From the IMG/VR virus record IMGVR_UViG_3300050156_000143, positions 213,517 to 277,516 of that record: a stretch of DNA of 64,000 bases. One strand, written 5' to 3'. The position numbers were made by a program, and so were the translations under genes. The stretch is from a virus. Its lineage: Duplodnaviria; Caudoviricetes. Every line of letters begins with the position of its first letter. Positions within the stretch are counted from its first letter, which is position 1. The notes below the pieces were generated by a model. The model searched no databases and was not told the DNA's origin. It worked only from the letters and a program-made list of their open reading frames with translations. Of this stretch, positions 6,394-62,080 are shown one piece after another.

Positions 6394-6659
6394 TGATCGC
6401 CAAACTGAATAAACCATGTTCTGGGCTGTTTCATCGGGAATTGTTCAATCACGAGATCGAAATATTGTTGTCGAAAATATATCAAGAATTGGTGAAATAT
6501 GATCTGGTAAATCACGTGCGTGCGTCCCATCCGTGGCTATTTTATGTTTCACATATTCCACATAAAACTCTGTATTATGAAACAACTGAAATCGACATTG
6601 ACGACTCGGTTTTGCATTTGCCTAATACCATTGCATTCTTACTGCTTCATTGCTCATGA
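6384..6659 (+). CDS. hypothetical protein
   Basis: 91-aa ORF ending TIAFLLLHCS; exact start uncertain. Confidence 0.55.
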   Translation: MHIMIAKLNKPCSGLFHRELFNHEIEILLSKIYQELVKYDLVNHVRASHPWLFYVSHIPHKTLYYETTEIDIDDSVLHLPNTIAFLLLHCS

Positions 6660-7252
6660 AAAATAGTGGCGACATCGACATTGATGTGGGAAATAGAGAC
6701 CAATTACTTGCATTAATCGACCATAATCCAGCCAAAATTTGCACACAAGATGGGGACAGGCGGCATGGATCGGGAATATACGTTACCGACATTCCATATG
6801 ATTTTGTGAATGAAATTGCGACCATCGATTACCAAAGTGCGGAAACACGCGGTTACTTCAAGTTGGATATATTGAACGTGTCTCTATACTCAGAAATAAC
6901 AAACACGGATGAGCTAGAATCGCTGATGGTTCCACCAAAATGGGAGTCACTGGGTTCACGAGAATTTGTCGAACAGTTGACACATCTTGGTCAACACTAT
7001 GATCTCTTACAAGAACTCCCCCCGATAACTTCCATAGTGGAACTGGCAATGGCTCTAGCCATCATTCGCCCCGCTAAACGCCATCTTGCTGGAAAACCTT
7101 GGGAAATCGTGAAAAAAACGATTTGGCAAACTACTCCAGGTCAATATGCCTTCAAAAAGGCGCATGCGATAGCTTACGCTCATTTGGTAGTAGTCAATAT
7201 GAATATGGCGTCAAGGAATTTTGCGAACCATTATGACCCCTTTTCTCTTTGA
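6656..7252 (+). CDS. dnaE: DNA polymerase III alpha (DnaE)-like palm fragment
   Basis: GDIDID, HGSGIYV, GYFKLDIL and AFKKAHAIAYA correspond to DnaE PDxDxD, HA.GVVI, KxDxL and FNKSHxxAYA. Confidence 0.8.
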   Translation: MKNSGDIDIDVGNRDQLLALIDHNPAKICTQDGDRRHGSGIYVTDIPYDFVNEIATIDYQSAETRGYFKLDILNVSLYSEITNTDELESLMVPPKWESLGSREFVEQLTHLGQHYDLLQELPPITSIVELAMALAIIRPAKRHLAGKPWEIVKKTIWQTTPGQYAFKKAHAIAYAHLVVVNMNMASRNFANHYDPFSL

Positions 7253-7588
7253 TTTTTTTACACCAAGAGCATGGATGCTGCATATCGGCCCGTGAAGTAT
7301 GGTCAGATTTTTGGTGACAAACGTTTTCAAAAATGGCTTGAATTCGTGCCATTCATGGCGTAAAAACAAGTGAATTGGCACAATTCGGTTACTTCCCCAC
7401 CACCACGCATCACCAAGTTCTAGAAACCGTTTCCTGGCGTCTGAGTTGGTAATGGCCGAATAATCATAAAGTGACGTGACGGATGTATCCTGGTTTTGTA
7501 CAATTCCCACATAATCAACACCAGCGTATGTGCAAATTGTGATAAAGGGGTAATGTTCAGCTAGTGTTGTTAAGTAGTTTTCTTGCAT
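7211..7588 (-). CDS. conserved phage hypothetical protein
   Basis: 125-aa ORF with WWWGSNR.VPI.LFL..EW motif. Confidence 0.7.
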   Translation of the reverse strand: MQENYLTTLAEHYPFITICTYAGVDYVGIVQNQDTSVTSLYDYSAITNSDARKRFLELGDAWWWGSNRIVPIHLFLRHEWHEFKPFLKTFVTKNLTILHGPICSIHALGVKKSKRKGVIMVRKIP

Positions 7589-7629
7589 TTGTGCGGTTAT
7601 TTAGGTGGCATCTGTCGGTTAAATACCTT

Positions 7630-8349
7630 ATGTATGCAACAACCGTCTATATTTACAAACCTCGTCAGCAGGTGATTGTATATTCTGGTAACAGTCCTAG
7701 GAAATTTCAGCAAATGTACGCAAATAATCTCAAACTGCATCGCGGCGTTGATAACAAAATTCAATTCCGATTTCTGAACCAAGAGCAAAAACCTATTGAT
7801 GTGTCAGATAGAGAAATCACTTGTCGAATATTGGATTCAACCAATTCTCAGGTCATATTGCAAAAAACGTTGTCAGGATTCTTGCCAGTCACGGGCATCA
7901 TGGAGTTGGAGGTGTTGTCCTCCGATTTGGTTGATATAAAACCACAGAATTGCTTTTATTCACTTAGTTTCGCCGATGGCGACGGTGTGTACCCAGTATT
8001 TGTGGATACGTTGGGTGGATCAAAAGGTAAGATTGAGATAATGGATGACATATTGCCCACACATGTTGAATCCAACCTTGTTGGCATACCGTCTACCTCG
8101 GGTGCGATTTATTATTCCAGTGAATTTTCACCAGACAAATTTTCTACTACGATTCAAGTCGTTTTGACTGGATATTCTGGCTACATTGTCGTAGAAGGGT
8201 CAGTTAATTCGACCACATGGTACACAGTCACGCAGGTCTCGTTGGTTGCCAGTGATGGTGCTATAATTTCAATCGATGGGTTCCACCCCAAAGTCAGAGT
8301 CAAATTTCAACCCACACAAGGCGAACCTACCCGCATTCTGTATCGATGA
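7630..8349 (+). CDS. putative virion structural protein (beta-rich)
   Basis: TTAAATA at 7619-7625 lies just before ATG 7630. Confidence 0.6.
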   Translation: MYATTVYIYKPRQQVIVYSGNSPRKFQQMYANNLKLHRGVDNKIQFRFLNQEQKPIDVSDREITCRILDSTNSQVILQKTLSGFLPVTGIMELEVLSSDLVDIKPQNCFYSLSFADGDGVYPVFVDTLGGSKGKIEIMDDILPTHVESNLVGIPSTSGAIYYSSEFSPDKFSTTIQVVLTGYSGYIVVEGSVNSTTWYTVTQVSLVASDGAIISIDGFHPKVRVKFQPTQGEPTRILYR

Positions 8350-8382
8350 ATGTTGGGGCGTCTTGGATTCTAAAATCACAAG

Positions 8383-9357
8383 ATGTACAACATTCTCACC
8401 ATTATTCCAGGGCAAGTAAAAACAACTAAAAGTGGGTGGCATTCGTTTAATGCAGTTTGCTGCCACAATCGTGGACACCGGGTTGACACGAGATTTCGAG
8501 GCGGGCTGAAAATTGATGGAAACAATTGGCTCTACCATTGCTTCAATTGTCAATACACATGTTCTTTTGAATATGGTAGGTTCATAGATGACAAAACGTC
8601 TGAAATGCTCAAATGGTGTGGAATGGAGCAATCGGATATCAATCGATGGTCTTTCGATAGTCGCAGTCATCGGCACATTTTGGATTTAATCCCAAAAGCG
8701 GTAGTTGAAGATGAGATCACGTTCCCACCAATATCACTACCAAATAACTCAGAGTTCATTGATAAAGCAAATCCCAAGCATGCCAGATACATTGAATATC
8801 TAGAATCAAGAAAGATTGATCCGTTAAAGTACCCATTTTGTGTAACGCCTTATGAGAAAGGTAGAAACAACAATAGAATCATTGTGCCCTACACGTACAA
8901 AAATGAAATAGTTGGACACACTTCCAGGTTCATGGACAACAGACTACCCAAATATCTAAATGACCAATCTCCTGGGTATGTTTTTGGATACGATTTACAA
9001 CATCCTGAGTGGCAAGTTTGTATATTGATGGAGGGCATTTTTGATGCTCTGAGCATAGATGGTTGTGCCACAATGCACGAGACCATTTCCCCATCACAGG
9101 CCAAACTGTTAGCCACACTCAAACGTAAAATCATCGTGGTTCCAGATTATGACAAATCTGGTTTGTCCATGATCTCCAAGGCGCAAGAATATGGCTATTC
9201 AATAAGTTTACCAAATTGGGGAGAAGGTGTAAAAGACGTGAACGACGCTGTTGTGAGGTACGGTAAATTGCCAACTGTTTTGGCAATTTTGGAAGCCGCT
9301 ACCACTAGTAAAATTTTAATAGAAATGAAAAGGCAACGCATTGCTGCAAGAATTTAA
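8383..9357 (+). CDS. DNA primase (T4 gp61-like)
   Basis: Zn finger (CC.HNRG...HCFNC), TOPRIM EGIFDAL, PDYD, KDVND; adjacent to the helicase. Confidence 0.88.
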   Translation: MYNILTIIPGQVKTTKSGWHSFNAVCCHNRGHRVDTRFRGGLKIDGNNWLYHCFNCQYTCSFEYGRFIDDKTSEMLKWCGMEQSDINRWSFDSRSHRHILDLIPKAVVEDEITFPPISLPNNSEFIDKANPKHARYIEYLESRKIDPLKYPFCVTPYEKGRNNNRIIVPYTYKNEIVGHTSRFMDNRLPKYLNDQSPGYVFGYDLQHPEWQVCILMEGIFDALSIDGCATMHETISPSQAKLLATLKRKIIVVPDYDKSGLSMISKAQEYGYSISLPNWGEGVKDVNDAVVRYGKLPTVLAILEAATTSKILIEMKRQRIAARI

Positions 9358-10738
9358 CCATGAAGTCCAAGAAATATTCTTGCGGCTTATGGTCACAAAC
9401 CCGGAATTGTATACTAGAACATTAAACATCTATAACCCGGAGAATTTTGATAAAAAATTCAGAGCTGCTGCACGGCTCATTCGAGAACACGCTGACAAAT
9501 ACCGGGCATTGCCATCGTCGCTTCAAATTAAGGCCACCTGTGGCGTATCAATTGATCCGGTTGAAGATTACCAAGACGCGGATGGGCAATGGTTCTTAGA
9601 CAACTTTGAAGCGTTCACCAAACGCCAAGAACTTGAACGGGCCATTTTGGAATCAGCCAAACTGCTAGAAAAGGGGGAGTTTGGGACAGTAGAAACCCTT
9701 ATTAAAAAAGCGGTGCAAATATCTTTGCAGAAGGATATGGGCACTGATTATTTTGCCGATCCTCGTGCTCGGCTTTTGGCATTGAAATCCACCAACGCAC
9801 AGTTATCAACCGGGTGGGTAGTTTTAGATGACTTGCTCAATGGTGGGTTTAACCGTGGGGAACTACAGTTATTCACGGGTGGGTCAGGTGCGGGTAAGAG
9901 TTTGTTTATGCAAAATCTTGCAGTCAATTATGTTACCACGGGGTATAACGTAATTTATATCACCTTGGAACTAAACGAAGGACTATGTGCAGCACGTATA
10001 GATTCCATGATGGCAGACGTTGGCTCAAAAGAGTTGTATCAACGTTTGGATGATGTGGTTTCACGGGTTGCAGAAATTGGAAAAACTGCTGGGTCATTTC
10101 AACTAAAATACGTACCAGCACAAAGTACCATCAACGATATTCGTGCATATTGCAAAGAGTGGCAGATTCAATCAAAGAAAAAGATAGATGTTATCTGTCT
10201 TGATTATTTGGACTTGTTGATGCCCTATGGGGCAAAAGTCAGTGCAAGTGATTTGTTTGTTAAAGACAAATATGTGGCAGAAGAGGCTCGCAATCTTGCA
10301 AAAGAATTGAACGTCATTATGATTACTGCCAGCCAATTGAATCGCAGCGCAGTAGAGGAAACCGAATTTGACCACAGTCATATCTCGGGTGGCATCTCCA
10401 AAATCATGACAGCCGACAACATGTTTGGCATTTTTACATCCAGGTCAATGAAAGAGCGTGGCAAATATCAATTGCAGATGATGAAAACTCGTAGTAGCGA
10501 CGGTGTGGGTAAAAAATGTGATTTACTTTACAACAACAAGACGCTCAGGATTTTGTCACCGGCCTCAGACAAATTTGGATCAGGTGGAAGCGGATCATTG
10601 ATCGATCAAATGGTGGGCAAGATACGCAATGGTGAAGTGCAAGGCGATAGCGGTGAGATCACAGAGGTGCCAAAAGTGAAGGGTGACATCCAAAGTGCAA
10701 AATTAAAGCAAATGCTAGCCGCACGTAAAACCACCTAA
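9341..10738 (+). CDS. replicative DNA helicase (DnaB/T4 gp41-like)
   Basis: GGSGAGKS Walker A, ITLEL, CLDYLDL, TASQLNR, MKTRSS. Confidence 0.92.
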   Translation: MLQEFNHEVQEIFLRLMVTNPELYTRTLNIYNPENFDKKFRAAARLIREHADKYRALPSSLQIKATCGVSIDPVEDYQDADGQWFLDNFEAFTKRQELERAILESAKLLEKGEFGTVETLIKKAVQISLQKDMGTDYFADPRARLLALKSTNAQLSTGWVVLDDLLNGGFNRGELQLFTGGSGAGKSLFMQNLAVNYVTTGYNVIYITLELNEGLCAARIDSMMADVGSKELYQRLDDVVSRVAEIGKTAGSFQLKYVPAQSTINDIRAYCKEWQIQSKKKIDVICLDYLDLLMPYGAKVSASDLFVKDKYVAEEARNLAKELNVIMITASQLNRSAVEETEFDHSHISGGISKIMTADNMFGIFTSRSMKERGKYQLQMMKTRSSDGVGKKCDLLYNNKTLRILSPASDKFGSGGSGSLIDQMVGKIRNGEVQGDSGEITEVPKVKGDIQSAKLKQMLAARKTT

Positions 10739-10752
10739 ATAAATCATCAAAT

Positions 10753-11007
10753 ATGTCCATGACACCCAACACCAAAAGTTTACTCCAGGAACTAACTGCA
10801 CTTGGAGACTTGCGAGATAAACGCCACATGATTGCCACTCGTGCGAACAACGTGATATCTAGTGCAGTGCATTTACTAGAAATCATCGCATCTTCATATG
10901 GGAGTGAACAAGCGGATATGTTGGAGAAAAAGTTGATGAACGCGATAAAAAACCGTGACCCAGCAAAGTTCACAAACCACATTAGGAAAATAAATGAAAG
11001 CAAATGA
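10753..11007 (+). CDS. hypothetical late protein
   Basis: CTAAATA at 10735-10741 upstream. Confidence 0.65.
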   Translation: MSMTPNTKSLLQELTALGDLRDKRHMIATRANNVISSAVHLLEIIASSYGSEQADMLEKKLMNAIKNRDPAKFTNHIRKINESK

Positions 11008-11719
11008 TATAGATGAGGCATGGAATCCAACTTCGCTCGTGGGTGCTGGGGTCAAATCGTTGTTCACGGGGCAGAATGCAACGGATATAGCAGTTAGTAA
11101 CAAGTTTATTGAAAACTTTTATTCACGGATTGTCACCGATTTGAATGCCGCGATTCGAGGTGGAATGGTTGATATTAAAAATCCAGCAATTCCAACATTG
11201 GGGCAGCCACCCCAAAGTATAGATACCGCTCCAGAATCCCCTCCATCGTTATCTGAACAGTTCCACAAGTTGATGGAATCGTCTGGGCAAAGTATCAGTC
11301 AATGGCTGTATGATTATGTCAATAATTACACCAACGGTGCGATACACGGGAGTGAGCCACGAGTAGTTAGATTGTGTGTAGCAGTGCAAACCGTGTGGGG
11401 GCAAAAGTTACAAAAAGAGGCACTCACTCGGTTAGGTAGTTTGATTTATTCAGTAGTCAGACAAACTGCTGGCAAACAACACGCTCAGGATGCTGCTCCC
11501 TCGGGTGTACCAAAGGCAGATAAACCGACTAAAGAAGATCCAGTGTTCCCAAAATCTGAATACATTTCCAGAGCTATTGTCGGATTAAAGTCAGTTGATC
11601 CAAAAGATTATCAAAAGGTGATGCTGACTGCTGCAAAACAGATGAATAAACTTGATCGACATTCGTTGGAAGTGTTTTTGAAAGAATTGCAGAAAAAGCT
11701 GACCGACAATCATGACTAA
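10994..11719 (+). CDS. hypothetical late protein
   Basis: 241-aa ORF overlapping both neighbours. Confidence 0.65.
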   Translation: MKANDIDEAWNPTSLVGAGVKSLFTGQNATDIAVSNKFIENFYSRIVTDLNAAIRGGMVDIKNPAIPTLGQPPQSIDTAPESPPSLSEQFHKLMESSGQSISQWLYDYVNNYTNGAIHGSEPRVVRLCVAVQTVWGQKLQKEALTRLGSLIYSVVRQTAGKQHAQDAAPSGVPKADKPTKEDPVFPKSEYISRAIVGLKSVDPKDYQKVMLTAAKQMNKLDRHSLEVFLKELQKKLTDNHD

Positions 11720-12752
11720 CGGGCATTTAACGCACCCAGAAGATTTGTTACTGTCAGGTGGCGCCCCTGGGGGGATTTTGGCGATTGAACTGCTGCGAAA
11801 GATGACGAAAACTCCCTCCGAGTTAACGATAAAGTATGATGGCTACCCGGCCTTGATCTTCGGGAGAAATCTTGATGGCCAGTTTGGCATCATGGACAAA
11901 CATATGTTCAACAAACGTGATGGCACGGGTAGAAAAATATTCTCCCCTAGGATGTTCGTTGAATATGACCTCCACCGTGGTGCCAATCGTCAATCATTGT
12001 GGGAAACGGTGGAAAACATTTGGGATTCACTGGAATATCAATTTGGAAACAATGTCGGGTATGTTTGGGGGGATTTACTGTTCTCAAAGCCGTTGGATGC
12101 CCAAAACGGGATATTTCGATTCCGGGCAAATCCCAATGGCATGGTGTATGAAATCAAAGAGCACTCCAGTTTGGGAAAAGCAGTGGCCAACAAACTGGCT
12201 GGTATTGTGGTGCATCAATCCATACCAGCATCGGCCGTTAGTGTGGACGAGGCCAACCCCGTTTCATCAAAATTGAAACAAGGTGACGTACTTATACTGT
12301 CGCCAAATTTGCCGATTGTTCCGAAAGTGGGAAACATTGAGCCAGTGTTGACACAATTAAAGGCACATTGTGGTAAATTGTCATCCATCACACTGTTCAA
12401 CGATGCTCCCACCGGTTTCGCACAGTTTCTCATGGGATTTGCCAACTACGTGGTGAAAACCGGGGATTTGGAAAAGTTGATGGAAAAATTGCACCAATAT
12501 GCGACAATGAAGGCAGTTACGTATATTGACATGTTGGATCAAGCCGAGCTGTCATCGGTTCTAACATTATGGGCACAGTTAATGACCGTGAAAAACATAT
12601 TGGTTAACCAAATTGATAAACAGATGGTGAACTCCCCGATTGTAGCAAAACTCGACAATGGCAAAATTGCACATGAGGGGTATGTCGGGTTTGGTGTGAA
12701 GTTTGTTAACCGGTTTGGTTTTAGTAAGCAGAATTTTGCTGGCAATAGTTGA
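11712..12752 (+). CDS. DUF6267-like protein with ligase-like (KxDG) motifs
   Basis: HLTHPEDL, TIKYDGYPALIFG, WGDLLF, HEGYV, VKFVNR. Confidence 0.65.
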   Translation: MTNGHLTHPEDLLLSGGAPGGILAIELLRKMTKTPSELTIKYDGYPALIFGRNLDGQFGIMDKHMFNKRDGTGRKIFSPRMFVEYDLHRGANRQSLWETVENIWDSLEYQFGNNVGYVWGDLLFSKPLDAQNGIFRFRANPNGMVYEIKEHSSLGKAVANKLAGIVVHQSIPASAVSVDEANPVSSKLKQGDVLILSPNLPIVPKVGNIEPVLTQLKAHCGKLSSITLFNDAPTGFAQFLMGFANYVVKTGDLEKLMEKLHQYATMKAVTYIDMLDQAELSSVLTLWAQLMTVKNILVNQIDKQMVNSPIVAKLDNGKIAHEGYVGFGVKFVNRFGFSKQNFAGNS

Positions 12753-12814
12753 ATAATATTGGCTTGGCATAAATACCTGTAGAGCGATGCTCAACAACTT
12801 TAAAGGATTATTTT

Positions 12815-13225
12815 ATGTCTATCGTGACTCGTGTAAATGGTGATGTTCAACCCGTCTTTGCATATGATGTGCAAAATGGTAAGCAAACTGGCACTATCAG
12901 TGCCGATGCCCTGGTGCAATTTGAAGGTGGTCGGCTAGATTTCTTCAAAATTATGGCCAACGATGGTTCTGCCGCCGTTGATCTGCGTGCGCAGCTTGGT
13001 GCGGGTGGTGCCGTTGAAGCTATCTTCAAAACCATCAACCAACTTGGTGGTGTGCGTATGTATCAAGTTGAGGGTGACTCCACTGGACAAATTTCGGTGG
13101 GCGTCTATCCCGCTGGCGCATGGACTGCTACCACACTGCAAGCCGCTATTCGTGCCCTGGGCACAGTGAACGGTGCTGATCTGGACACTACCGCTGTAAC
13201 GGCTCCTGGCCTGCAACTTGCCTAA
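12815..13225 (+). CDS. small virion structural protein
   Basis: ATAAATA at 12769-12775; AAGGA RBS; Ala/Gly/Thr-rich; own terminator. Confidence 0.7.
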   Translation: MSIVTRVNGDVQPVFAYDVQNGKQTGTISADALVQFEGGRLDFFKIMANDGSAAVDLRAQLGAGGAVEAIFKTINQLGGVRMYQVEGDSTGQISVGVYPAGAWTATTLQAAIRALGTVNGADLDTTAVTAPGLQLA

Positions 13226-13248
13226 CTGAACACCCAGCTAACGTGTTC

Positions 13249-13272
13249 AAGCCACCTTCGGGTGGCTTTTTT
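13249..13272 (+). terminator. Rho-independent terminator
   Basis: AAGCCACC-TTCG-GGTGGCTT followed by a T-tract. Confidence 0.9.
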
Positions 13273-13296
13273 ATTCCCGACTGTTTCACACGGGCT

Positions 13297-13350
13297 TTGT
13301 CATTGTTGGGAATATTGATGTACACTGCATTCACTGCACTGACGCAGACA
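13297..13350 (+). promoter_or_regulatory. early promoter plus 5' stem-loop cassette, copy 1
   Basis: TTGTCA-N18-TACACT GCATTCA CTGC-ACTGAC-GCAG. Confidence 0.65.
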
Positions 13351-13369
13351 TTTCGACCGGAGTTCCACC

Positions 13370-13612
13370 ATGTTGCCGCTCTCTACGATTCCCAAAAACA
13401 TTGAATATCGAATCCACAACGTGAACATCTGGGTAACACGCCCAGTTGGCGACAACGCGCCTTCAAGTGGGGAGCTTTTGAGCCGTGGTCGGGTACATGG
13501 GCGAAATTCTGAATATTTGACAAACGCCAGCACAAAACAATGTTGGATTTGTTCTCGTGATGAATTTGCCCGTCTGATAACGGACGGAACATTCATCATA
13601 GCGAAAAAATGA
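13370..13612 (+). CDS. hypothetical protein
   Basis: GGAG RBS; first gene after the promoter cassette. Confidence 0.6.
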   Translation: MLPLSTIPKNIEYRIHNVNIWVTRPVGDNAPSSGELLSRGRVHGRNSEYLTNASTKQCWICSRDEFARLITDGTFIIAKK

Positions 13613-13616
13613 TGCT

Positions 13617-13841
13617 ATGTACTACTCCAACAAAGACGTATACCTCCAACGCAATCTCAGTCGCATCACATGTGGGGTGTTGCATCTGACCCGTGAATTG
13701 AAATCATTCGAGAGAATGCGAGAACGCGGGTGCCCGGACAGAGTAAACACCATGTTTTATCAGATCGCAAAAGATAAACTATCCGATCTGTTGGCCATTC
13801 AAACCAGGTTATCCCGTGAAGCACGTCTTCCGTCTTTCTAA
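13617..13841 (+). CDS. hypothetical protein
   Basis: Packed 74-aa ORF. Confidence 0.55.
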   Translation: MYYSNKDVYLQRNLSRITCGVLHLTRELKSFERMRERGCPDRVNTMFYQIAKDKLSDLLAIQTRLSREARLPSF

Positions 13842-14289
13842 ATTTGTGGTAAACCGTGACATCCAAGGTGCTCGCCGAGGTGACCACATTGTGGTAATCA
13901 CTGATCCGGGCATGCCATATTTGCGCTATCGCGTCAACGACACTGTTGTTGTTAAAATTTCCGCAGCAGAGTTCGACCACGCTATAGCAAATGGTGACAT
14001 ATCCGAGATTCATCCACTGGCGGTGAAAATTAAGAGGCGCAAAGCGCATGAAGGATGGCAAGAATCGGGGTTGCTCAAAGTGGCCGACAAATTTGGGGAA
14101 CAGGCTGGGGAGCACGGTGCTTGGTATTTTTGGATGACGCTTCCCGACGATGAACGGGGGCAAGAAATCATAACGGACGAACTTACCCGTCGAGGCCACG
14201 AATATGAAGTAGTCTTGTTGGAAGATATGACAATTGGATATAACGCCGTACACCAAATCGTGATCTTGAAAAATCGGACAAAGTCATGA
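13816..14289 (+). CDS. hypothetical protein (start uncertain)
   Basis: Fills the gap; ATGA overlap with the next gene. Confidence 0.55.
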   Translation: MKHVFRLSKFVVNRDIQGARRGDHIVVITDPGMPYLRYRVNDTVVVKISAAEFDHAIANGDISEIHPLAVKIKRRKAHEGWQESGLLKVADKFGEQAGEHGAWYFWMTLPDDERGQEIITDELTRRGHEYEVVLLEDMTIGYNAVHQIVILKNRTKS

Positions 14290-14510
14290 AAATTGCCAAT
14301 ACCATCGCCATTTCATCCACCGATGCCTGTATTGGGCGAACCGTGGTGAAACGTTCCGGGAAACCGTTCAAAAGCGGTCAGTTTACCGCAGTAGTCAGCA
14401 CAGTGACCACCAATCCGCAACACAACCATCGTCCAGCATTCACTTTTATCGATTGTGATGGCGTGGTCGATGTTACTCAATTGTTACTTTTACCATCCAC
14501 AACGGCTTAA
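14286..14510 (+). CDS. hypothetical protein
   Basis: 74-aa ORF, R.GKPFKSG motif. Confidence 0.55.
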   Translation: MKIANTIAISSTDACIGRTVVKRSGKPFKSGQFTAVVSTVTTNPQHNHRPAFTFIDCDGVVDVTQLLLLPSTTA

Positions 14511-14526
14511 CGCCAGAAGATACACC

Positions 14527-14931
14527 ATGAACCAAACTATGAAATACATCGGTGGCGCCATTGTCGCTGGCACCGCCATCACGTTGGCCCTTCACGCTGC
14601 TGGCGTTTTTACCACTGTCGCCACTGCACCGGGACGAATCGTGAATCGCACCATGTCCACCGTCAATATCATCCAGAATTACGAATGGTTCTATGATGCC
14701 AACGGACAGATTAACGCCCGTGTTGGTCAAATTGCCGCACACGCTAAGCTCATCGCAGCCGAAACTGATAAACGAGAACGTGCTCAGTTGAACATTGAAT
14801 TGGCCGGTATGCAACAAAGTTGCCGAGAATTGGTGGAAAAGTATAACGCCAATTCTGAAAAGGCCAACCATTCCATTTTCAAATCCAACAATCTTCCCGA
14901 TTCGTTCAACCCGTCTATTTGCGGAGCCTAA
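14527..14931 (+). CDS. N-terminally membrane-anchored coiled-coil protein
   Basis: Hydrophobic N-terminus, NYEWF motif, heptad-like C-terminal half. Confidence 0.7.
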   Translation: MNQTMKYIGGAIVAGTAITLALHAAGVFTTVATAPGRIVNRTMSTVNIIQNYEWFYDANGQINARVGQIAAHAKLIAAETDKRERAQLNIELAGMQQSCRELVEKYNANSEKANHSIFKSNNLPDSFNPSICGA

Positions 14932-14934
14932 ATC

Positions 14935-15426: not shown

Positions 15427-15438
15427 TTTGGAGTTTCC

Positions 15439-16545: not shown

Positions 16546-16556
16546 AGGAGCATATC

Positions 16557-17552: not shown

Positions 17553-17559
17553 ACCCCTT

Positions 17560-17596
17560 AGTCGCAGTATGGTATTTCACTATGCTGCGACTTTTT
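17560..17596 (+). terminator. Rho-independent terminator
   Basis: 14-bp stem with two G-U pairs (AGTCGCAGTATGGT / ACTATGCTGCGACT) followed by T's. Confidence 0.75.
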
Positions 17597-50757: not shown

Positions 50758-50758
50758 T

Positions 50759-51499: not shown

Positions 51500-51523
51500 A
51501 AAACGCAAGCACTTCATGTTAAT

Positions 51524-51545
51524 CCACCTTCGGGTGGCTTTTTTG
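51524..51545 (+). terminator. Rho-independent terminator
   Basis: CCACC-TTCG-GGTGG-C followed by T6. Confidence 0.8.
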
Positions 51546-51605
51546 TGCCCATCGTAAAGTTGCCCAGGTTCACTAAATACTATATCAAATTTAGGAGAAC
51601 TGATT

Positions 51606-52235: not shown

Positions 52236-52248
52236 TAGGAGATAAAAT

Positions 52249-53361: not shown

Positions 53362-53368
53362 ATAGTCA

Positions 53369-53659
53369 ATGACCGATATAGTTAATTCAAATGAGTATGA
53401 CATTGTGTTGTCACATTTCAAGAGTCTGAAAAAGTCAGATGATGTGGCCAATACTTTCACCGGGTATTTGTTCACAGTGGCAAACATGACTGAGCAAAAT
53501 GTTCTAGACATTCTGGACTCGTTTAAGAAAACTCCCACGCAAGAAGCCATGACCATGCTTGCGTATTATTTGAATAGCAATCGTTCGCCCACATCATTGT
53601 ATGGAGTGGGAAAAATCCCAGTTCCTAACCAATATGTGCAAAGGAATGTGCTCGTATAA
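53369..53659 (+). CDS. conserved late hypothetical protein
   Basis: GTAAATA upstream; LN.NR.PTS..G motif. Confidence 0.65.
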   Translation: MTDIVNSNEYDIVLSHFKSLKKSDDVANTFTGYLFTVANMTEQNVLDILDSFKKTPTQEAMTMLAYYLNSNRSPTSLYGVGKIPVPNQYVQRNVLV

Positions 53660-54093
53660 TGGCGAACAAATTTGCCAAGGGTAAATTTAGTCCAAAAAAC
53701 CCTGAAAAATATATTGGAAAAAAGACTCCAATGTTTAGATCAGGGTGGGAAATGCAGATCATGATGTTTTTTGACAATAGTCCACACATCCTGAAATGGG
53801 CGAGTGAGTCCATCATTATTCAGTATTTTCACCCGTTTAAGAAACAGATTGCGTCGTACATTCCTGATTTTTTTGTCACATACCGAGACAAGGACTCTAA
53901 CATAAAGGCGGAACTGATAGAAGTCAAGCCATCATCGCAAACTAGCATACAAGAGGCTAAAAGCAAGTATGACAAACTGCAATGTGCAATCAATCAGGCA
54001 AAATGGACGGCAGCACGGGCATGGTGTGCAAAAAATAAAATCACGTTCAGAATCTTGAACGAAACCGACATCTTCAGAAATGGCAAAAAATGA
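53659..54093 (+). CDS. head completion nuclease (T4 gp4-like, TnsA-like fold)
   Basis: F.P.NP.KY.G, RS.WE, W.SE, Y.PDF, E.KP..QT, KW.AA..WC. Confidence 0.85.
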   Translation: MANKFAKGKFSPKNPEKYIGKKTPMFRSGWEMQIMMFFDNSPHILKWASESIIIQYFHPFKKQIASYIPDFFVTYRDKDSNIKAELIEVKPSSQTSIQEAKSKYDKLQCAINQAKWTAARAWCAKNKITFRILNETDIFRNGKK

Positions 54094-54569
54094 CAGACAA
54101 ATTGCGCAACTTCTTTAACATCCCCGATGATGAAAAGGTGGTTCAAATCAGGTCGGAAGAAAGTGTGACCAAACAGGTATTCGACGATGCTCAAGCAGCA
54201 TTGTCCAATATCGAACAAGCGTTGAGTGGTGTTGTTGACTTGGACGAATCTGATCAAGATATGGATGAAATCGCAACCTTGGCCACCACTAAGTTTGAGG
54301 AGATGGCAGATTTTGCGATGCAAGTTGATAGCAGATTTGCCGCCCCGTTGTTTGAGGTTGCTCAAAAACTTTTGGGGCACGCTTTGACTGCAAAGACAGC
54401 CAAGATGAATAAGAAATTGAAAATGCTGGATTTGCAGCTAAAGCAGTTAGCCATTGAGAAAAAGATGCCCAAAGAGCCACCTGAAGACGATGAATCCACG
54501 TTGCCGCAATCTTTTAAGACGATGGATCGCAATGAATTGCTCAGAGCAATTTCACCCAGAAAATCCTAA
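54090..54569 (+). CDS. possible terminase small subunit-like protein
   Basis: Helical; R....FEVA..LL and C-terminal DRNELL resemble the gp16 layout; position among head genes. Confidence 0.4.
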   Translation: MTDKLRNFFNIPDDEKVVQIRSEESVTKQVFDDAQAALSNIEQALSGVVDLDESDQDMDEIATLATTKFEEMADFAMQVDSRFAAPLFEVAQKLLGHALTAKTAKMNKKLKMLDLQLKQLAIEKKMPKEPPEDDESTLPQSFKTMDRNELLRAISPRKS

Positions 54570-54595
54570 ATAGCTCTAATAGGAAAAAACATACA

Positions 54596-55183
54596 ATGAA
54601 ACGTTTTGAGCAATATTTGACAGAAAGTCAGCGAAATTATCGATATACGATAAAAATCGCTGGTGAAGTTGACCAAAAGAAATTACAGGCATTTAGACGA
54701 GGGTTGGATAAATTTGACCCAGTGTCAATCACTGATGTGAAAAACACTCCAATTCAAGCCAGCCCAGCAGGGTTCGATCATTTAAAAAATGAATCTATCG
54801 GGGTGTTCAAGGTGGACTTCAAGTATCCCGCCACTGAACCACAAGTGCTTGAAATCGCCCGCCTAAATGGCCTGGACACCAATCGAATCCGAGTCATTGA
54901 TACAGAATATGATGACAGTGTTTCTCATACTGCGTCGCAAGTCGCACATCAATACGACAAAGGCCCATTGCTAACATCCGATTTCAATGATGATTCCGAT
55001 GGTAAAAAGGCGAGCAAATTGTATAGTGAACAATACCGTTCGTTGTTCCCACAGAAGTCAGATATTAAACTCACCGGCCCCAAAACAGTGGAAAACACTG
55101 TGTCAGTAAAAGAAGAACCTAAACACAGTCCATTGTCATCCGTGAGACTTCCAGCTAGACCAAAGACTGGGAGAACCAAATGA
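54596..55183 (+). CDS. putative internal head protein
   Basis: CTAAATA at 54566; MKRFEQYLTE resembles the T4 capsid-targeting sequence. Confidence 0.65.
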   Translation: MKRFEQYLTESQRNYRYTIKIAGEVDQKKLQAFRRGLDKFDPVSITDVKNTPIQASPAGFDHLKNESIGVFKVDFKYPATEPQVLEIARLNGLDTNRIRVIDTEYDDSVSHTASQVAHQYDKGPLLTSDFNDDSDGKKASKLYSEQYRSLFPQKSDIKLTGPKTVENTVSVKEEPKHSPLSSVRLPARPKTGRTK

Positions 55184-55401
55184 TAGACCTAACCACCAAA
55201 CAATTGAGCTGGGTTGTGGTAGCAGTGTTACCACTTGGGGGCACTGGCTACATGAGCATCAATGATGCCAATAAAAATATGAGCAAAGACATTGCAGTCA
55301 TTTCCACCAAAGTGGAATCTACTGAACGCAGACTGGACGCCATCATCGCGCAATTGGATAAAATTGACGCCAAACTTGAACAAAATCGGACTAAAAAATG
55401 A
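55180..55401 (+). CDS. single-TM coiled-coil protein
   Basis: One hydrophobic segment followed by a heptad stretch. Confidence 0.55.
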   Translation: MIDLTTKQLSWVVVAVLPLGGTGYMSINDANKNMSKDIAVISTKVESTERRLDAIIAQLDKIDAKLEQNRTKK

Positions 55402-56732
55402 ACATTCGTGATTTACTTAAAACGTTGGACACTATTTCCAAGAAGCCACTAAACGAAGATGTGACTATCACCCCTTCGCAAACCCAAACCATTAAAAGTG
55501 GCAACAAAGTGATCGGACGTGTGTCTGATCCAAACCTGGCTAATCAAATCAAAGCTGGTATTGAAAAGGGTGATGTGGAATTGGATGATGAACTGAAAGA
55601 GCAAGATATGTTGGTTCCAAAGAGTGCCAAACTCGATGAAACCGCCCCAGAAGATCAAGAAGAATGGGTTCGTGCTAATAAGAAGAAGTTCGTTGAACAG
55701 TATGGTAAAACCAAGGGACTTGAAATTTTGTACGCCACTGCATGGAAGCGTCACAATGCCAGACAAGGTGTTTCTGAAGGTAAGAAACAACCTGGTGAAC
55801 CCTCAGACAGCCCAGTGGCAAAACAATACATGATTGTTGACCGGACTGGTAAACCAATTAGTAAACCATACAAATCAGAAAAGGTTGCAAAAAATATATT
55901 ACTCAAGGGCAAAGAGTCTGGTAAGTATAAAAAGTCTTTCAAGGTGGTGTGTGAATCCTCGAATTTGGTATTAGCCAATTCCACGTTGGATCATATTTTG
56001 AAGAAATTTGGTCACGAAATTGGTAAATTCAAGGATAGTGGCGAGCTTGATGGCCATTTGTATATTGCACTGTTTGATTACTATCAACACGCAGGTGATA
56101 TGCCATATGGCATCGCACATTCCAAAGACGGTGATCCGCATTCTTGGGTGGGTGACAAACTAACGCAAGAATTGACTTCACGCGGGGAAATGTATTCCGA
56201 TATTCACCCATACGATGGGGATGTTCAGTTCGAGGCGTGGACTAAACAATTCAACGAACTGTTGAGTGAAGGGATGTCAATTTCCTCTAATACTGTTTCC
56301 AACAGTGATCCCAACTATGGCGGAACCACACCATCAAAAACGATCACTGTGACTGCCACGGATGAAGATGCCGACACCTTGGCTGACATGATTAAACACG
56401 CTGGAATCGGCATGTTTGGTGATATTGAAGACGACTTGCCCGATGAAGTTGAAGTTGCCGTCGAAGGCGACTGTGAGCCACAAGTTGACGAGGACGTTGC
56501 GTGCGAATCTTGTGGCAAATGTGAATGTGAGTGTGAAGTCACCGAAGGCACGGAAACGGTAAACGGACATGATGAAGAAATTACTCAAGACAGTGATTAC
56601 ATGCTAAATACCATTTCTGGCGGGTTGAATAACAAAAAACTACAACATAAACATGGGTATAAACAAGGGGACAACCCGCTGGCAATGGATGAATTGGCGG
56701 AGATGAGAAAACTAAGTGGCATAAAAATCTAA
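55398..56732 (+). CDS. putative internal head / prohead core protein
   Basis: MNIRDLLKTLD start; many L.E motifs; acidic; ends LAEMRKLSGI. Confidence 0.6.
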   Translation: MNIRDLLKTLDTISKKPLNEDVTITPSQTQTIKSGNKVIGRVSDPNLANQIKAGIEKGDVELDDELKEQDMLVPKSAKLDETAPEDQEEWVRANKKKFVEQYGKTKGLEILYATAWKRHNARQGVSEGKKQPGEPSDSPVAKQYMIVDRTGKPISKPYKSEKVAKNILLKGKESGKYKKSFKVVCESSNLVLANSTLDHILKKFGHEIGKFKDSGELDGHLYIALFDYYQHAGDMPYGIAHSKDGDPHSWVGDKLTQELTSRGEMYSDIHPYDGDVQFEAWTKQFNELLSEGMSISSNTVSNSDPNYGGTTPSKTITVTATDEDADTLADMIKHAGIGMFGDIEDDLPDEVEVAVEGDCEPQVDEDVACESCGKCECECEVTEGTETVNGHDEEITQDSDYMLNTISGGLNNKKLQHKHGYKQGDNPLAMDELAEMRKLSGIKI

Positions 56733-56761
56733 AAACCACAAATTGATGGGAGTAGTTTATG

Positions 56762-56789
56762 GTGACTGGGTAAAACCAGTCACTTTTTT
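56762..56789 (+). terminator. Rho-independent terminator
   Basis: GTGACTGG-GTAAAA-CCAGTCAC followed by T6. Confidence 0.85.
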
Positions 56790-56813
56790 ATTGGTAGGGT
56801 CTAAATACCACAT

Positions 56814-57974
56814 ATGACGCAACAACACCTTTTCTTTGGAAGTTATCCAAACGATCTAAATGCCGATGCAATTAGAACTGCTTTTTCCAAAGTGGAAAAC
56901 AATTTCAACGATTTATACTCGCCGGGTGTTTCTACTGGAGTCACCAGTTTGCATTCAGGCGTTGGAACCACGGTTAGTCAAACGAGTGGAAATGTGGTGG
57001 TATCAGCCAACATCAATCAGGTAAAAATCCAAACCAGTACCTTAACAGTTGGAATCGGTGGTACAGGATTCACCAACACAACCCTCACGAATGGCACCCA
57101 AATACTACACATTGACATTGGAGATTCCGTTACTACGGAAACAATTGATGCAAATATCATTGAGAATGCCCAGTTTGCAGAAAGCGCTAGTGCCCAGCCC
57201 AACATCACCAGTGTTGGTGATTTGACTGACCTGACTGTTATCGGCCTCTCACAATGTGGGGAAATTGTGGCAGAAACGATAGTGGTAACTGATGGCAATC
57301 CGATAACCAGTGTTTTGACTACCGACCCCCCCGTTCAAATTGGCCTCACTACTGTAAAAAATCTAGTAATTGGAACATCCGAACTTCAGGCTCGGGATGA
57401 TGGTTCTGCTAGCCAACTGCGCGTAAATCCATATGGTGGAAATATAATTTTAGGAAATTCATCGTCCTCTGTGTACACATCCGGGACGTTAACCGTGGCG
57501 GAGCGTGCGATATTTGGCGCAAACTCGGATGTGGAATTCCGAAATCAGACTCCGGCCACTGATGTAAACACTGCTGCGGTGATATTGTCAGGCGGGATTT
57601 CAGTAGCAGCCAATGCTATCGTGAACGGATCAATCATGCAAGGACAGGGGTCATCGGTGTTGGTTGAACAGTCTGCGCGTACAGTATCACTGGCAACCGT
57701 TTCCACTGTGAATATTGATAATTGGGATAACGCGGTGTACCACGCTTGTAAATATACGATCACTATCGTGCAAGGCAGCAATATTCACACCGCAGACATC
57801 ATGGTGGCATATGGTGGATCGTCTGCAATAATGACTTCCACCAACCTCTCCAATACTGCAATATTGGGTACATTTTCAGTATTAACTTCGTCTAGTTTGG
57901 TTTACCTCAGACTGACAATGGCTACTGGCACTAGTGCAAAAGTAACAATGCACAAGATTTTATTCAGGAATTGA
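56814..57974 (+). CDS. tail/baseplate-associated fibre-like structural protein
   Basis: CTAAATA at 56801; PND..D..R.AF.K...NF..LY N-terminus; beta-rich. Confidence 0.7.
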   Translation: MTQQHLFFGSYPNDLNADAIRTAFSKVENNFNDLYSPGVSTGVTSLHSGVGTTVSQTSGNVVVSANINQVKIQTSTLTVGIGGTGFTNTTLTNGTQILHIDIGDSVTTETIDANIIENAQFAESASAQPNITSVGDLTDLTVIGLSQCGEIVAETIVVTDGNPITSVLTTDPPVQIGLTTVKNLVIGTSELQARDDGSASQLRVNPYGGNIILGNSSSSVYTSGTLTVAERAIFGANSDVEFRNQTPATDVNTAAVILSGGISVAANAIVNGSIMQGQGSSVLVEQSARTVSLATVSTVNIDNWDNAVYHACKYTITIVQGSNIHTADIMVAYGGSSAIMTSTNLSNTAILGTFSVLTSSSLVYLRLTMATGTSAKVTMHKILFRN

Positions 57975-57976
57975 TC

Positions 57977-58591
57977 ATGGAAATCACCAAAGAAGTGTTG
58001 AAAACGGTCGCCAAATTTGCTCCCGACGCTAGGTTAACAGAATATTCAAACTTGTTTAACGAATTGTTTCCGAAGTATGGACTAACCACTAAATTACGTG
58101 TAGCTCATTTTGTGGCACAAGTTGCGCATGAAAGTGGTGGGTTCACTGTGGTTGTTGAAAATCTAAATTATTCAGCAGAAGGCCTGACAAAAGTCTTTTC
58201 AAAATATTTCCCAAACATGATATTGGCCAATAAGTATGCCAGGCAGCCAGAAAAGATTGCCAATCTGGTGTATGCAAATCGTATGGGGAACGGTGCCGAA
58301 CAATCTGGTGACGGGTTTACGTACCGTGGTAGAGGATTGATCCAACTTACTGGGAAAAATGGATACGAGCAATTTGCCAAATATTCCGACTTGAGCATCG
58401 ACGATGCGGTAACTTTATGCTCTACGCCGCGAGGATGTGTGTTAAGTGCGTTGTGGTTTTGGGATGCAAATAAGCTGAATGATATCGCTGATCAACACGA
58501 TATTTTAAAGATAACCAAACGTATCAACGGTGGCACCAACGGCCTCGACGAGCGTCAATCAAACTACATAGCGATTTCCAAGGTATTATGA
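57977..58591 (+). CDS. glycoside hydrolase family 19 lysin
   Basis: AHF.AQ.AHES.GF...ENLNYS, YRGRGLIQLTG, TKRINGG.NGL..R. Confidence 0.92.
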   Translation: MEITKEVLKTVAKFAPDARLTEYSNLFNELFPKYGLTTKLRVAHFVAQVAHESGGFTVVVENLNYSAEGLTKVFSKYFPNMILANKYARQPEKIANLVYANRMGNGAEQSGDGFTYRGRGLIQLTGKNGYEQFAKYSDLSIDDAVTLCSTPRGCVLSALWFWDANKLNDIADQHDILKITKRINGGTNGLDERQSNYIAISKVL

Positions 58592-60555
58592 CCCAGCCAA
58601 CGTGGAACGAGCTTAATATTGGTGAATTCACGATTGGCGACAGTGTGGACATCACGTTGTCGGTGATTGTTTATCCACCTGCCACAGAAGCGACATTCTC
58701 AATATTGAACGGACAGTTGCCGCCAGGTTTGAGTTTAGTAAATTCTCATATTATTGGCACAGTTAGTCAAGGTGGCACGTTTACCTGTACCATACGGGCA
58801 ACTGACACATATTCGCAAATCCGTGACAAAACGTTGACTATCACCGTGGACTCAGCTATTGCACCAGAATGGGGTGTGTCGGGTTTGTTGTTCACAGTGA
58901 ATGACGCCACATGGGTGGATTTTGATCTAACCTATACCACATATTCCACCCCATTAGTGGAATTGGTCAGTGGTGAACTACCAGATGGGCTTGAGTTGTC
59001 TTCTACTGGAAAAATCCGTGGCTGGGTAAATGTCAATAAATTGGCCAATGGCAATCAGGTGAGCAAAACGAGTGAATTCACATTGAGCCTAGCAGATGAG
59101 TTTGGCGCTGTGGATCGAGTGTTCACTGCCCAAGTTAATGTCCAAAGTGCTGGAACACGGGTGCCAGTCATTTTAACTGATCATCCAGAGCATTTGGAAA
59201 TTCCAATAGATGACCCCTACCGACAATTTTATACTGACGGGTATATCGGTACATACCAGAGCGGTGATCCTATCGTGTTTAAGGTGATTGCCAGGGATTT
59301 TGACAATGATGACCTAACTTATGAGTTTACCGGCTTGCCATCCGGGTTAATCGGGAATGATACCGGATGGATTACCGGAAACATCACCTTGACAACTGAT
59401 GGTATTACACAGTTTGAGTTTGACGTTACGGTTAAGAAAACTGACGCTCCTTTGATAGTATCAGACACAAAAACGTTCACGTTAAATGTGCAGAAAAACA
59501 TAAACGACACTATCACTTGGGTAACCGATACCTCGTTAATATCTTTGTATAATGGTGAAATCTCTTCGCTATCGGTGTATGCTGATTCTGACACTGAGTT
59601 GAATTATGAAGTCACTTCTGGGCAATTGCCTGAAAACCTTGAACTAAACAGTGATGGTCAAATTGTTGGGCAAGTTTCACTACAATTAACAGAAATAACT
59701 GACCAAAGAACATACATATTCACTGTTACAGCCACGTCGTCAGAGTATTCTTTTATATCGGCCTCAAAACAGTTTTCACTAACTGTGATACAAGCTCACG
59801 CGCCATATGATTATTTGTATTTTAAGGCCACGCCCGATGTGGAATCGCGGGAACTGTTGGATTCGGTTTTATCATCTTCCGTCTTGTTCCCAGATTCTGA
59901 AATTTTTAGACCCTATGATGAGCATTTTGGGGTCAGTCGTCTGCCAATATTTCCATTCGTGTATGGGGTAAAACCAACCATATTGTCTGCCATTTCTGAT
60001 GGAATGAGCCAATCCCACTATAACAAACGAGTGGTGTTCGGGGAATTACAAACCGCAGTGGCGCAGAATTATGAAGTAGTGTATTTGCCCATAATCGACC
60101 AACTTGACGGTGCAAATTACACCAGGGCGATAGACCCTCCTATAACCCACTGTGGCAACACAATATATGCACTTTACCCAAACACTTATGCCAATATGCT
60201 AGCCACATTGTCGAAAACCGTGAATATCACTCCCGAAGATACAATGTTGCCACAGTGGATGAGATTTCAACAACCATCGGGAGAAACTCTTGGATTTACA
60301 CGGGCGTGGGTGTTGTGTTACACAAAGGTGGGAAAGTCAGCCACAATAAAACAACGGTTACTAGACGATGGTATCAATTTTAATGAAATCGACTTCACTA
60401 TAGATCGTTATTATGTGGATAAAAGCTCCACCTTCAATTACAACGAACAATGGGAAACGCCAGTTTGGAGTGAAATTCCTGGTGGAGTACCCACCCCCTC
60501 ACCATTGAACTCAAAAGATCACATGGTATCGTTTCCAAGACTGGATATAATTTAA
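58588..60555 (+). CDS. baseplate wedge-like protein with Ig-like repeats
   Basis: Repeated G.LP.GL.L...G.I.G motifs; C-terminal LP.WM...Q..G..LGF..A..LCY.K.G. Confidence 0.75.
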   Translation: MTQPTWNELNIGEFTIGDSVDITLSVIVYPPATEATFSILNGQLPPGLSLVNSHIIGTVSQGGTFTCTIRATDTYSQIRDKTLTITVDSAIAPEWGVSGLLFTVNDATWVDFDLTYTTYSTPLVELVSGELPDGLELSSTGKIRGWVNVNKLANGNQVSKTSEFTLSLADEFGAVDRVFTAQVNVQSAGTRVPVILTDHPEHLEIPIDDPYRQFYTDGYIGTYQSGDPIVFKVIARDFDNDDLTYEFTGLPSGLIGNDTGWITGNITLTTDGITQFEFDVTVKKTDAPLIVSDTKTFTLNVQKNINDTITWVTDTSLISLYNGEISSLSVYADSDTELNYEVTSGQLPENLELNSDGQIVGQVSLQLTEITDQRTYIFTVTATSSEYSFISASKQFSLTVIQAHAPYDYLYFKATPDVESRELLDSVLSSSVLFPDSEIFRPYDEHFGVSRLPIFPFVYGVKPTILSAISDGMSQSHYNKRVVFGELQTAVAQNYEVVYLPIIDQLDGANYTRAIDPPITHCGNTIYALYPNTYANMLATLSKTVNITPEDTMLPQWMRFQQPSGETLGFTRAWVLCYTKVGKSATIKQRLLDDGINFNEIDFTIDRYYVDKSSTFNYNEQWETPVWSEIPGGVPTPSPLNSKDHMVSFPRLDII

Positions 60556-60557
60556 TC

Positions 60558-61292
60558 ATGAGTAAAATAAGCACAAACAATTTGGATACCTCGTATCCAG
60601 TCCCTGGGGTAAACAATACGTCACAGGGGTTTCGGACAAATTTTCAGGTCATTAAAACTGCACTGGATCAAGCAGCCACTGAACTTTCAGAATTGCAATC
60701 AAACGTGGTGTTAAAAAGTGGGTTATCTGGGGCACCCCTCGATAATGACATGGAAGGCACCATGCTGTCCAACGTGTTAACCACGGGTTTTAGGCAGCAG
60801 ACCTACAATTTGGGGTCAGGATTGTCTGGCACCGCGGTAATTGACATGGCCAACGCCAACGTGCAACATGGCACCATAGACGGCGATGTTTTGCTGGAGT
60901 TTGCGTCATGGACACCTTCTGGGACATTGTGTGAGCTAGAGTTGTTGCTGTCTTTTTCTGACACAACAGCAACCGTGGAATTTCCCAGTTCTGTGGTAAA
61001 TGTTTCAACACTCGTGAATTCAAGCGGACAAACCGTGTCTCTTAAAAATGGACAGACAAAATTGCACTTCAAGTTGTATACCATAGATTGTGGAACAACC
61101 GTGTATGTTTTGCCACTGTCAAATACACCCAAAGTATCACATATTCAAACTAGAACACCCGTGAGAATCGGTGCCCAAGGCGATCTTAAAGGTGCAGTTT
61201 GTGTTGATACTAATTATTTGTATATTTGTTATGCGGATTATAACGGAACTAATAACATTTGGTCTAGAATTGCGGTGAATAATGTTTGGTGA
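60558..61292 (+). CDS. virion structural protein
   Basis: ID..YPV.G..N.SQGFR.NF..IK motif. Confidence 0.7.
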   Translation: MSKISTNNLDTSYPVPGVNNTSQGFRTNFQVIKTALDQAATELSELQSNVVLKSGLSGAPLDNDMEGTMLSNVLTTGFRQQTYNLGSGLSGTAVIDMANANVQHGTIDGDVLLEFASWTPSGTLCELELLLSFSDTTATVEFPSSVVNVSTLVNSSGQTVSLKNGQTKLHFKLYTIDCGTTVYVLPLSNTPKVSHIQTRTPVRIGAQGDLKGAVCVDTNYLYICYADYNGTNNIWSRIAVNNVW

Positions 61293-61545
61293 GTCTCATC
61301 CGTTTTCTGGAGATTTGACGAATCTATCAATGGCGGAATTGATGGAAAAAACCGCGGAGTTGTACAAGAAACGAGCAATTGCTGCTAGACTTGGTAATCC
61401 AGTCTTACTACAACAGCTCGACATGTTGATCTACAGTTACAACCTACGGTCTCAAGAGCTTGCCTCTCAAGAAATGGCACGCATCGCTGAACAGCACATG
61501 AGTAAAAAAGAGATCAGAGCAATGCGAGCAAAGACACAGCCCTGA
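61282..61545 (+). CDS. hypothetical protein
   Basis: HPF..DL..LS..EL motif. Confidence 0.6.
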   Translation: MFGESHPFSGDLTNLSMAELMEKTAELYKKRAIAARLGNPVLLQQLDMLIYSYNLRSQELASQEMARIAEQHMSKKEIRAMRAKTQP

Positions 61546-61573
61546 CCCCTACCGTTGTGGTACAGTGTCTCCC

Positions 61574-62080
61574 ATGTTCACAGACACGTACTCCAACATA
61601 GTTGCCACCGAGGATGACATCCTGCATCTTCTCTTAACGAATCCACAAAAGCCAATAAACCGCGCACTTGTGGAGTTTGACGTTAATATCCCTGAAGAAC
61701 TGGAATTGGATAAGTTTCCAATACTGACAACATATATTCCACCAACGGGATCAGTGGAGGAATATGACGCAAAATGTCAAGAAAACTGGCATATGCCGGT
61801 GGAATACAAAACGTTGGACATTGTGGATTACGTTGTCACTAAGTGTAAGTCGGACGTTGAGCTTCAACGTGTTGCCACCGAGCTAGAAATGTTTGAAGAA
61901 CGTGGTATGATGATGCTCCTACGCTACTTGGTCTACCTTGTTGACACCATGAAGAAAAACAATGTGGTATGGGGGGTTGGACGCGGCAGCAGCGTTGCAA
62001 GTTATGTATTATATCTAATTGGCATGCACCGTATTAATTCAATTTTGTATGAATTGGATATATCAGAGTTTTTGAAATAA
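61574..62080 (+). CDS. dnaE: DNA polymerase III alpha (DnaE)-like fragment carrying the GRGS motif
   Basis: RV..EL..F..RG...L..LVD......WGVGRGSS.AS.VLYLIG.H.INS...L...EFLK. Confidence 0.8.
   Translation: MFTDTYSNIVATEDDILHLLLTNPQKPINRALVEFDVNIPEELELDKFPILTTYIPPTGSVEEYDAKCQENWHMPVEYKTLDIVDYVVTKCKSDVELQRVATELEMFEERGMMMLLRYLVYLVDTMKKNNVVWGVGRGSSVASYVLYLIGMHRINSILYELDISEFLK

Follow-up and report, generated by a model that had tools for sequence, protein, structure and literature searches.

Two distant genes of an uncultured phage encode the halves of a candidate minimal C-family DNA polymerase

The genome of an uncultured phage (Duplodnaviria; Caudoviricetes) deposited as IMG/VR record IMGVR_UViG_3300050156_000143 is 277,516 bp long and has direct terminal repeats. 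Its last 64 kb (positions 213,517 to 277,516 of the record) make up the window, that is, the whole stretch of DNA analysed here, and all coordinates are counted from its first letter. The window carries two genes for parts of a split, miniaturised alpha subunit of bacterial-type DNA polymerase III (Pol III alpha, DnaE). The N-terminal part, referred to below as the N-piece, is encoded at 61574..62080 on the plus strand and has 168 amino acids (aa), while the C-terminal part, or C-piece, is encoded at 6656..7252 on the same strand and has 198 aa. Both open reading frames (ORFs) were found at these positions, separated by 54.3 kb, and their products together amount to 366 aa. The gene calls of close metagenomic relatives are likewise 168 aa and 198 aa long, which fits ATG starts at 61574 and 6656 and not the longer GTG/TTG frames. 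A split, miniaturised DnaE in two genes 54 kb apart had been proposed in an earlier reading of the same DNA (the original prediction), and is confirmed here by sequence comparison and by predicted fold.

The N-piece is related to Pol III alpha at the sequence level. A Pfam search returns PF07733 (DNA_pol3_alpha; E 1e-9), covering only positions 20-94 of the 260 in the profile, and phmmer pairs residues 101-170 of the 171-aa frame with residues 323-392 of Escherichia coli alpha. In an hhalign comparison a profile built from 30 N-piece sequences corresponds to E. coli 239-393, with the C-terminal FLK of the N-piece falling on FLN393, as had been predicted for this end. The AlphaFold model of the protein has a predicted local distance difference test (pLDDT) score of 80.6. 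When compared with 48,161 chains by VIA-align, its top seven matches are all C-family polymerases (Z 7.9-5.0, the next match having Z 3.7), and residues 66-168 superpose on E. coli 276-393 with a root-mean-square deviation of about 3 Å. This segment corresponds to the first part of the pol-beta-like palm and includes the nucleotide-binding motif WGVGRGSS, of which GRGS is invariant in 30 N-piece relatives of about 50-58% identity. Residues 1-65 (window 61574-61768) precede the part that can be superposed on Pol III alpha and resemble no solved structure. They are conserved within the family, and short strands and a helix are predicted for them.

The C-piece has no Pfam match, and neither its single sequence nor a 33-sequence profile finds a DnaE among the PDB entries. 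Its homology to DnaE therefore rests on the fold, on motif-level hhalign comparison, and on the fused forms described below. The model of the C-piece has a pLDDT of 71 and deserves confidence over residues 80-195. By VIA-align, the seven best structural matches of this model are again all C-family polymerases (Z 8.0-4.7, followed by 3.9), and residues 6-192 superpose on E. coli 403-807.

Within this frame the active-site residues of the bacterial enzyme can be followed one by one. Motif location in DnaE places D6, D8 and D10 of the C-piece, whose DxDxD motif begins only 5 residues from the start of the protein, on E. coli D401, D403 and D405. Further along, H37-x-x-G40 corresponds to H511/G514, K69-x-D71 (K69-L-D71) to K553/D555, and R138-P139 to R639-P640. 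By hhalign, FKKAHAIAYA is the equivalent of E. coli F756-A765, such that F166, H170 and Y174 stand for F756, H760 and Y764. In E. coli, D401, D403 and D555 are active-site residues of Pol III alpha, and H760, an invariant residue of Pol III alpha, is presumed to be the steric gate that excludes ribonucleotides (PMC8485763). The motifs named in the original prediction (GRGS, DIDID, KLD and FKKAHAIAYA) are thus all present. The spacing between them shows where the protein was reduced: about 80 residues are gone between the equivalents of D405 and H511, which deletes the thumb, and about 90 between those of R639 and H760, which shortens the fingers. The C-piece stops about 28 residues past H170, and everything after about E. 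coli position 807 is absent.

The active-site motifs are invariant in 33 C-piece and 30 N-piece relatives of about 50-58% identity. Among 92 C-piece sequences drawn from 50%-identity clusters, conservation is 99% for D6 and D8, 97% for D10, 98% for H37 and G40, 100% for K69 and D71, 98% for R138, 99% for P139 and 98% for H170. The catalytic aspartates D6, D8 and D71, which were expected to have been retained, are therefore 99-100% conserved. Pairwise Nei-Gojobori ratios of nonsynonymous to synonymous substitution rates (dN/dS) among IMG/VR relatives are 0.065-0.069 for the C-piece and 0.087-0.095 for the N-piece (dS<1), values which indicate that both pieces are under strong purifying selection.

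The two proteins meet at a defined point of the cellular enzyme. The last residue of the N-piece corresponds to E. coli N393 and M1 of the C-piece lies at about R396, so that the claim that the halves abut exactly holds to within about two residues. No intein half was detected at the C-terminal end of the N-piece or at the N-terminal end of the C-piece; the stop directly after FLK and the mere 5 residues before the DxD motif leave no room for one, as the prediction of an intein-free split had it.

The same junction is bridged in nature. An exhaustive profile search recovered a metagenomic protein of 375 aa (P0290) with a match to the C-piece over residues 190-370. The first half of P0290 is 36% identical to the N-piece (E 3e-21) and the second half 41% identical to the C-piece (E 1e-44). 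Two more fused proteins (P0391 and P0392), 78-81% identical to P0290, come from other assemblies; all three are 375-376 aa long, with the halves in DnaE order and a linker of roughly 10 residues. Since the junction is identical in all three, the fusion is no artefact. In the fused proteins the Pfam model of Pol III alpha runs continuously over the junction (profile positions 12-121). Residues 106-205 of P0290 align with residues 329-427 of L169, a bona fide bacterial DnaE whose gene lies between guaA and accA, with one gap of a single residue (E 4e-13), and with E. coli 319-418 at an hhalign probability of 93%. The abutment of the halves is in this manner shown independently, through natural fusions aligned to cellular DnaE. 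These fusions are the strongest evidence that the N-piece and the C-piece are halves of one enzyme, and they offer a ready-made single-chain construct for biochemistry.

Fusions are rare, with 3 clusters against thousands of split ones. In a quick maximum-likelihood tree computed with IQ-TREE, which is unrooted and was midpoint-rooted for drawing only, the fused clade (support 100) lies within a clade with a Shimodaira-Hasegawa-like approximate likelihood ratio (SH-aLRT) support of 95, the other nine members of which are stand-alone C-pieces. Because the fused clade is nested among split C-pieces, parsimony argues for a secondary fusion, and thus the fusion looks derived and the split ancestral. 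A search of viral contigs for loci of the fused form found no relative, and all that a metagenome scan yielded was one locus with a split C-piece and two dnaE genes of the ordinary bacterial kind.

The rest of the genome does not supply what the two pieces lack. Neither the PHP domain (PF02811) nor the Pol III fingers domain (PF17657) has a match in the whole genome, and tblastn searches with E. coli DnaE, two PHP-containing relatives and a fused protein match only the two pieces. The possibility that further genes rebuild a normal Pol III is ruled out by these empty Pfam and DnaE searches. The expectation of about 370 aa without PHP, most of the fingers, clamp-binding and OB domains agrees with the 366 aa found, to which nothing else in the genome adds such domains. 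The genome does contain a 981-aa frame for a family-B polymerase, which the original prediction had suggested looking for along with other DnaE pieces, and no family-A polymerase was found in it. Neither missing domains elsewhere in the genome nor a lack of purifying selection was encountered, the genome searches being empty and dN/dS low.

Both pieces are widespread among large phages, as had been anticipated. By tblastn, 95 cultured-phage records contain the N-piece and 96 the C-piece, at 36-56% identity; the carriers include RaK2/121Q/CBB-like and PA5oct-like phages, Atu_ph07, Phosso, SCTP-2, Xoo-sp13, RAS14 and Slicko01. At the nucleotide level, megablast retrieved no cultured phage for either region, and the relatives are recognizable at the protein level only. 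In IMG/VR at least 597 and at least 596 loci were counted for the two halves, and among metagenomic proteins more than 2,300 clusters correspond to the C-piece and about 8,000 to the N-piece, the nearest metagenomic relatives being about 50-58% identical. The matching PHROG families are phrog_11127 (E 2e-44) and phrog_11778 (E 3e-51), both of which are annotated "DNA polymerase". In cultured phages the N-piece and the C-piece are always apart, by 11 kb to more than 200 kb. In three contigs that carry both pieces the two share a strand, the C-piece preceding the N-piece by 40-44 kb, and in no case was one piece found within 6 kb of the other (0/80 C-piece loci and 0/80 N-piece loci).

Each half has its own conserved neighbourhood. 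The C-piece is followed by a DNA primase gene (8383..9357, plus strand), located 3′ of it in all 67 related loci with enough flanking sequence, and by a gene for a DnaB-like replicative helicase (9341..10738, plus strand), present there in 55 of 57 such loci. Between the C-piece and the primase lies a small convergent gene of unknown function (phrog_11637; 7211..7588, minus strand), which overlaps the 3′ end of the C-piece gene tail to tail by 42 bp. It stands beside the C-piece in 77 of 80 relatives and also in phage CBB (gp288), and this tight linkage might reflect a functional tie to the mini-polymerase. On the 5′ side, an ORF of 91 aa (window 6384-6659, plus strand) shares an ATGA overlap with the start of the C-piece, which would suggest translational coupling. 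None of 80 related loci has an equivalent of this ORF or of the two that precede it. A gene for a Lon-like ATP-dependent protease of 744 aa (phrog_4871, E 5e-223; window 2521-4755, plus strand) lies about 2 kb 5′ of the C-piece.

Directly 3′ of the N-piece, in 78 of 80 relatives, is the gene for a basic protein of 83 aa (phrog_14844, function unknown; 62094..62345, plus strand), possibly a partner or a DNA-binding accessory protein. Like phrog_11637, it belongs to no Pfam family. The next gene (62366-62722, plus strand) encodes a gp31/Cpn10-like co-chaperonin (phrog_931, "head morphogenesis", with a weak Pfam Cpn10 match); it occurs in 78 of 80 relatives and in CBB, and sits between the N-piece and an RFC/gp44-like clamp loader gene (63000..63938, plus strand). 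The clamp loader gene is found 3′ of the N-piece in 65 of 66 related loci with enough flanking sequence and in phage CBB. Both gene orders, that of the C-piece with primase and helicase and that of the N-piece with the clamp loader, are shared with CBB at about 37-46% identity. Upstream of the N-piece is a block of structural genes with an endolysin-like gene (phrog_181, E 1e-72; window 57971-58591, plus strand).

Very probably the two gene products are the subunits of a single heterodimer, a minimal C-family DNA polymerase core. Between them a single pol-beta-like active site is divided into complementary parts. The N-piece provides the helical first portion of the palm together with the G-R-G-S nucleotide-binding motif, and the C-piece the strands with the three metal-binding aspartates, the lysine of the K-x-D motif and shortened fingers with the steric-gate histidine. 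The halves would join non-covalently and form one active site that uses deoxynucleoside triphosphates (dNTPs) to extend primed templates. Having lost the thumb, clamp-binding and OB modules, such a core is probably distributive, and it may serve as an accessory polymerase beside the family-B replicase, with primer extension, gap filling or repair among its possible tasks. Templated dNTP polymerisation is favoured over untemplated transfer by the steric-gate histidine, which is conserved, and by the finger motifs that bind the template.

Several observations weigh against this interpretation. Foldseek finds no significant PDB match for the model of either half, though Pol III alpha chains headed the list for the N-piece. 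The structural Z-scores of 7-8 obtained for both halves are middling in absolute terms, and they convince only because C-family polymerases exclusively fill the top ranks and a clear gap follows. Residues 1-70 of the C-piece are modelled weakly (pLDDT 40-55), as is to be expected for half a sheet without its partner. It is unusual for obligate partners that their genes are never neighbours and never transcribed together, as is the case here. No exonuclease of the RNase T/DnaQ type was found in the 277.5-kb genome, and the loss of the thumb and of most DNA-binding modules makes processive templated synthesis questionable. Finally, no biochemical or genetic work on a split mini Pol III was found in the literature.

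A more ambitious role for the heterodimer, which must be considered doubtful, would make it a dedicated second polymerase of the replisome. By analogy with Bacillus subtilis DnaE or eukaryotic Pol alpha, it would extend primers by a short stretch of DNA after the primase has acted and then hand them off to the family-B replicase, and the fixed site of the catalytic half directly upstream of the primase and helicase genes would reflect a link with the primase. If this were true, these jumbo phages would operate a two-polymerase fork that combines bacterial-type and archaeo-eukaryotic-type enzymes.

Among explanations that depart from a DNA polymerase, the best surviving is that the heterodimer acts as a non-replicative nucleotidyltransferase in untemplated tailing, primer synthesis, DNA modification or nucleotide signalling, yet this is improbable. 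The phage already owns a complete family-B replicase, a primase and a clamp loader, the thumb and all processivity and DNA-binding modules have been lost, and the pol-beta-like fold is known to serve many chemistries. However, the R-P and F-x-K-x-H-x-x-x-Y-A motifs, which make contacts to template and dNTP and would be superfluous for untemplated or ribonucleotide chemistry, have been kept, with the histidine at 98%, and the nearest relatives in both sequence and fold are exclusively replicative C-family polymerases. The "new role" in priming, modification or repair put forward in the original prediction is still speculation.

It is very unlikely that the pieces are non-catalytic remnants of a captured dnaE that persist in the replisome in a structural or regulatory capacity, such as that of adaptors. 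The reduction to one third of the length of DnaE, the scattered genes and the missing Pfam match of the C-piece would suit such a fate, whereas pseudo-enzymes normally lose their catalytic residues, and here all of them are 97-100% conserved over very deep divergence, with dN/dS of 0.07-0.09. Hardly credible, too, is that the N-piece and the C-piece act separately with different partners and are complementary only through common origin, since, for all that they are never neighbours (0/80 and 0/80 loci) and belong to different gene modules, neither half holds a complete active site, both occur in essentially the same phages, and natural fusions rejoin them exactly at the DnaE junction.

As a two-chain replicase core of 366 residues, the proposed heterodimer is the smallest known candidate for a C-family polymerase. 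If active, it would represent the minimal catalytic unit of the C family, and its host virus would combine B- and C-family polymerases at one fork.

Among known systems the natural point of reference is bacterial Pol III alpha, represented by DnaE and PolC structures (PDB 2HNH, 5FKU, 2HPI, 5LEW and 3F2B). The pol-beta-like palm and the GS motif are shared with these enzymes, as are the three catalytic aspartates, the K553 equivalent, the RP motif and the helix with the steric-gate histidine, all in the same order. In contrast to the single chain of about 1,160 aa in DnaE and PolC, the phage protein has 366 aa in two chains, cut between N393 and R396. It is without the PHP, thumb, clamp-binding, OB and tau-binding domains, and its fingers are shorter by about 90 residues.

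Split polymerases are also found elsewhere. In cyanobacteria, DnaE is encoded by two distant dnaE genes, and intein parts splice the halves into one full-length chain. The phage pair resembles the cyanobacterial one in the distance between the genes, but has no intein and is split at another site in the protein. Family-B polymerases of T4-related and PA5oct-like phages likewise come in pieces, with or without inteins; these belong to a different polymerase family, are encoded by adjacent genes and retain the full domain content. In phage MIJ3 the split PolB is associated with an intein (PMC6892783). The natural fusions P0290, P0391 and P0392 have the same modules and conserved residues as the phage pair, and differ in being one polypeptide.

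The closest counterpart is the split minimal Pol III alpha of group 2.2 jumbo phages reported by Iyer, Anantharaman, Krishnan, Burroughs and Aravind (2021, Viruses 13:63; PMC7824862), the parts of which were proposed to cooperate in strand synthesis or repair; earlier genome papers on CBB and Atu_ph07 had already remarked on the truncated alpha-like N-piece. The gene pair described here is that arrangement, and all five of its defining features are found in this genome: two stand-alone proteins, divided into an N-terminal part that binds nucleoside triphosphates and a C-terminal part that binds Mg2+ and template, distant genes, no other Pol III domains, the company of a family-B polymerase and T4-like replisome genes, and sequence kinship with the cultured members, as seen in the PHROG and tblastn matches and the synteny with CBB. 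The examples given for that group are RaK2/121Q/CBB-like phages, PA5oct-like phages and Atu_ph07, from which this uncultured phage differs in nothing essential. One distinction is that CBB/RaK2 and Atu_ph07 encode a DnaQ-type (Pol III epsilon-like) exonuclease and this genome does not. To the arrangement as previously described, the present analysis adds the rare and apparently derived natural fusions, the quantification of synteny and selection, the correspondence to E. coli alpha at the level of residues and structure, which includes the loss of the thumb, and the absence of DnaQ.

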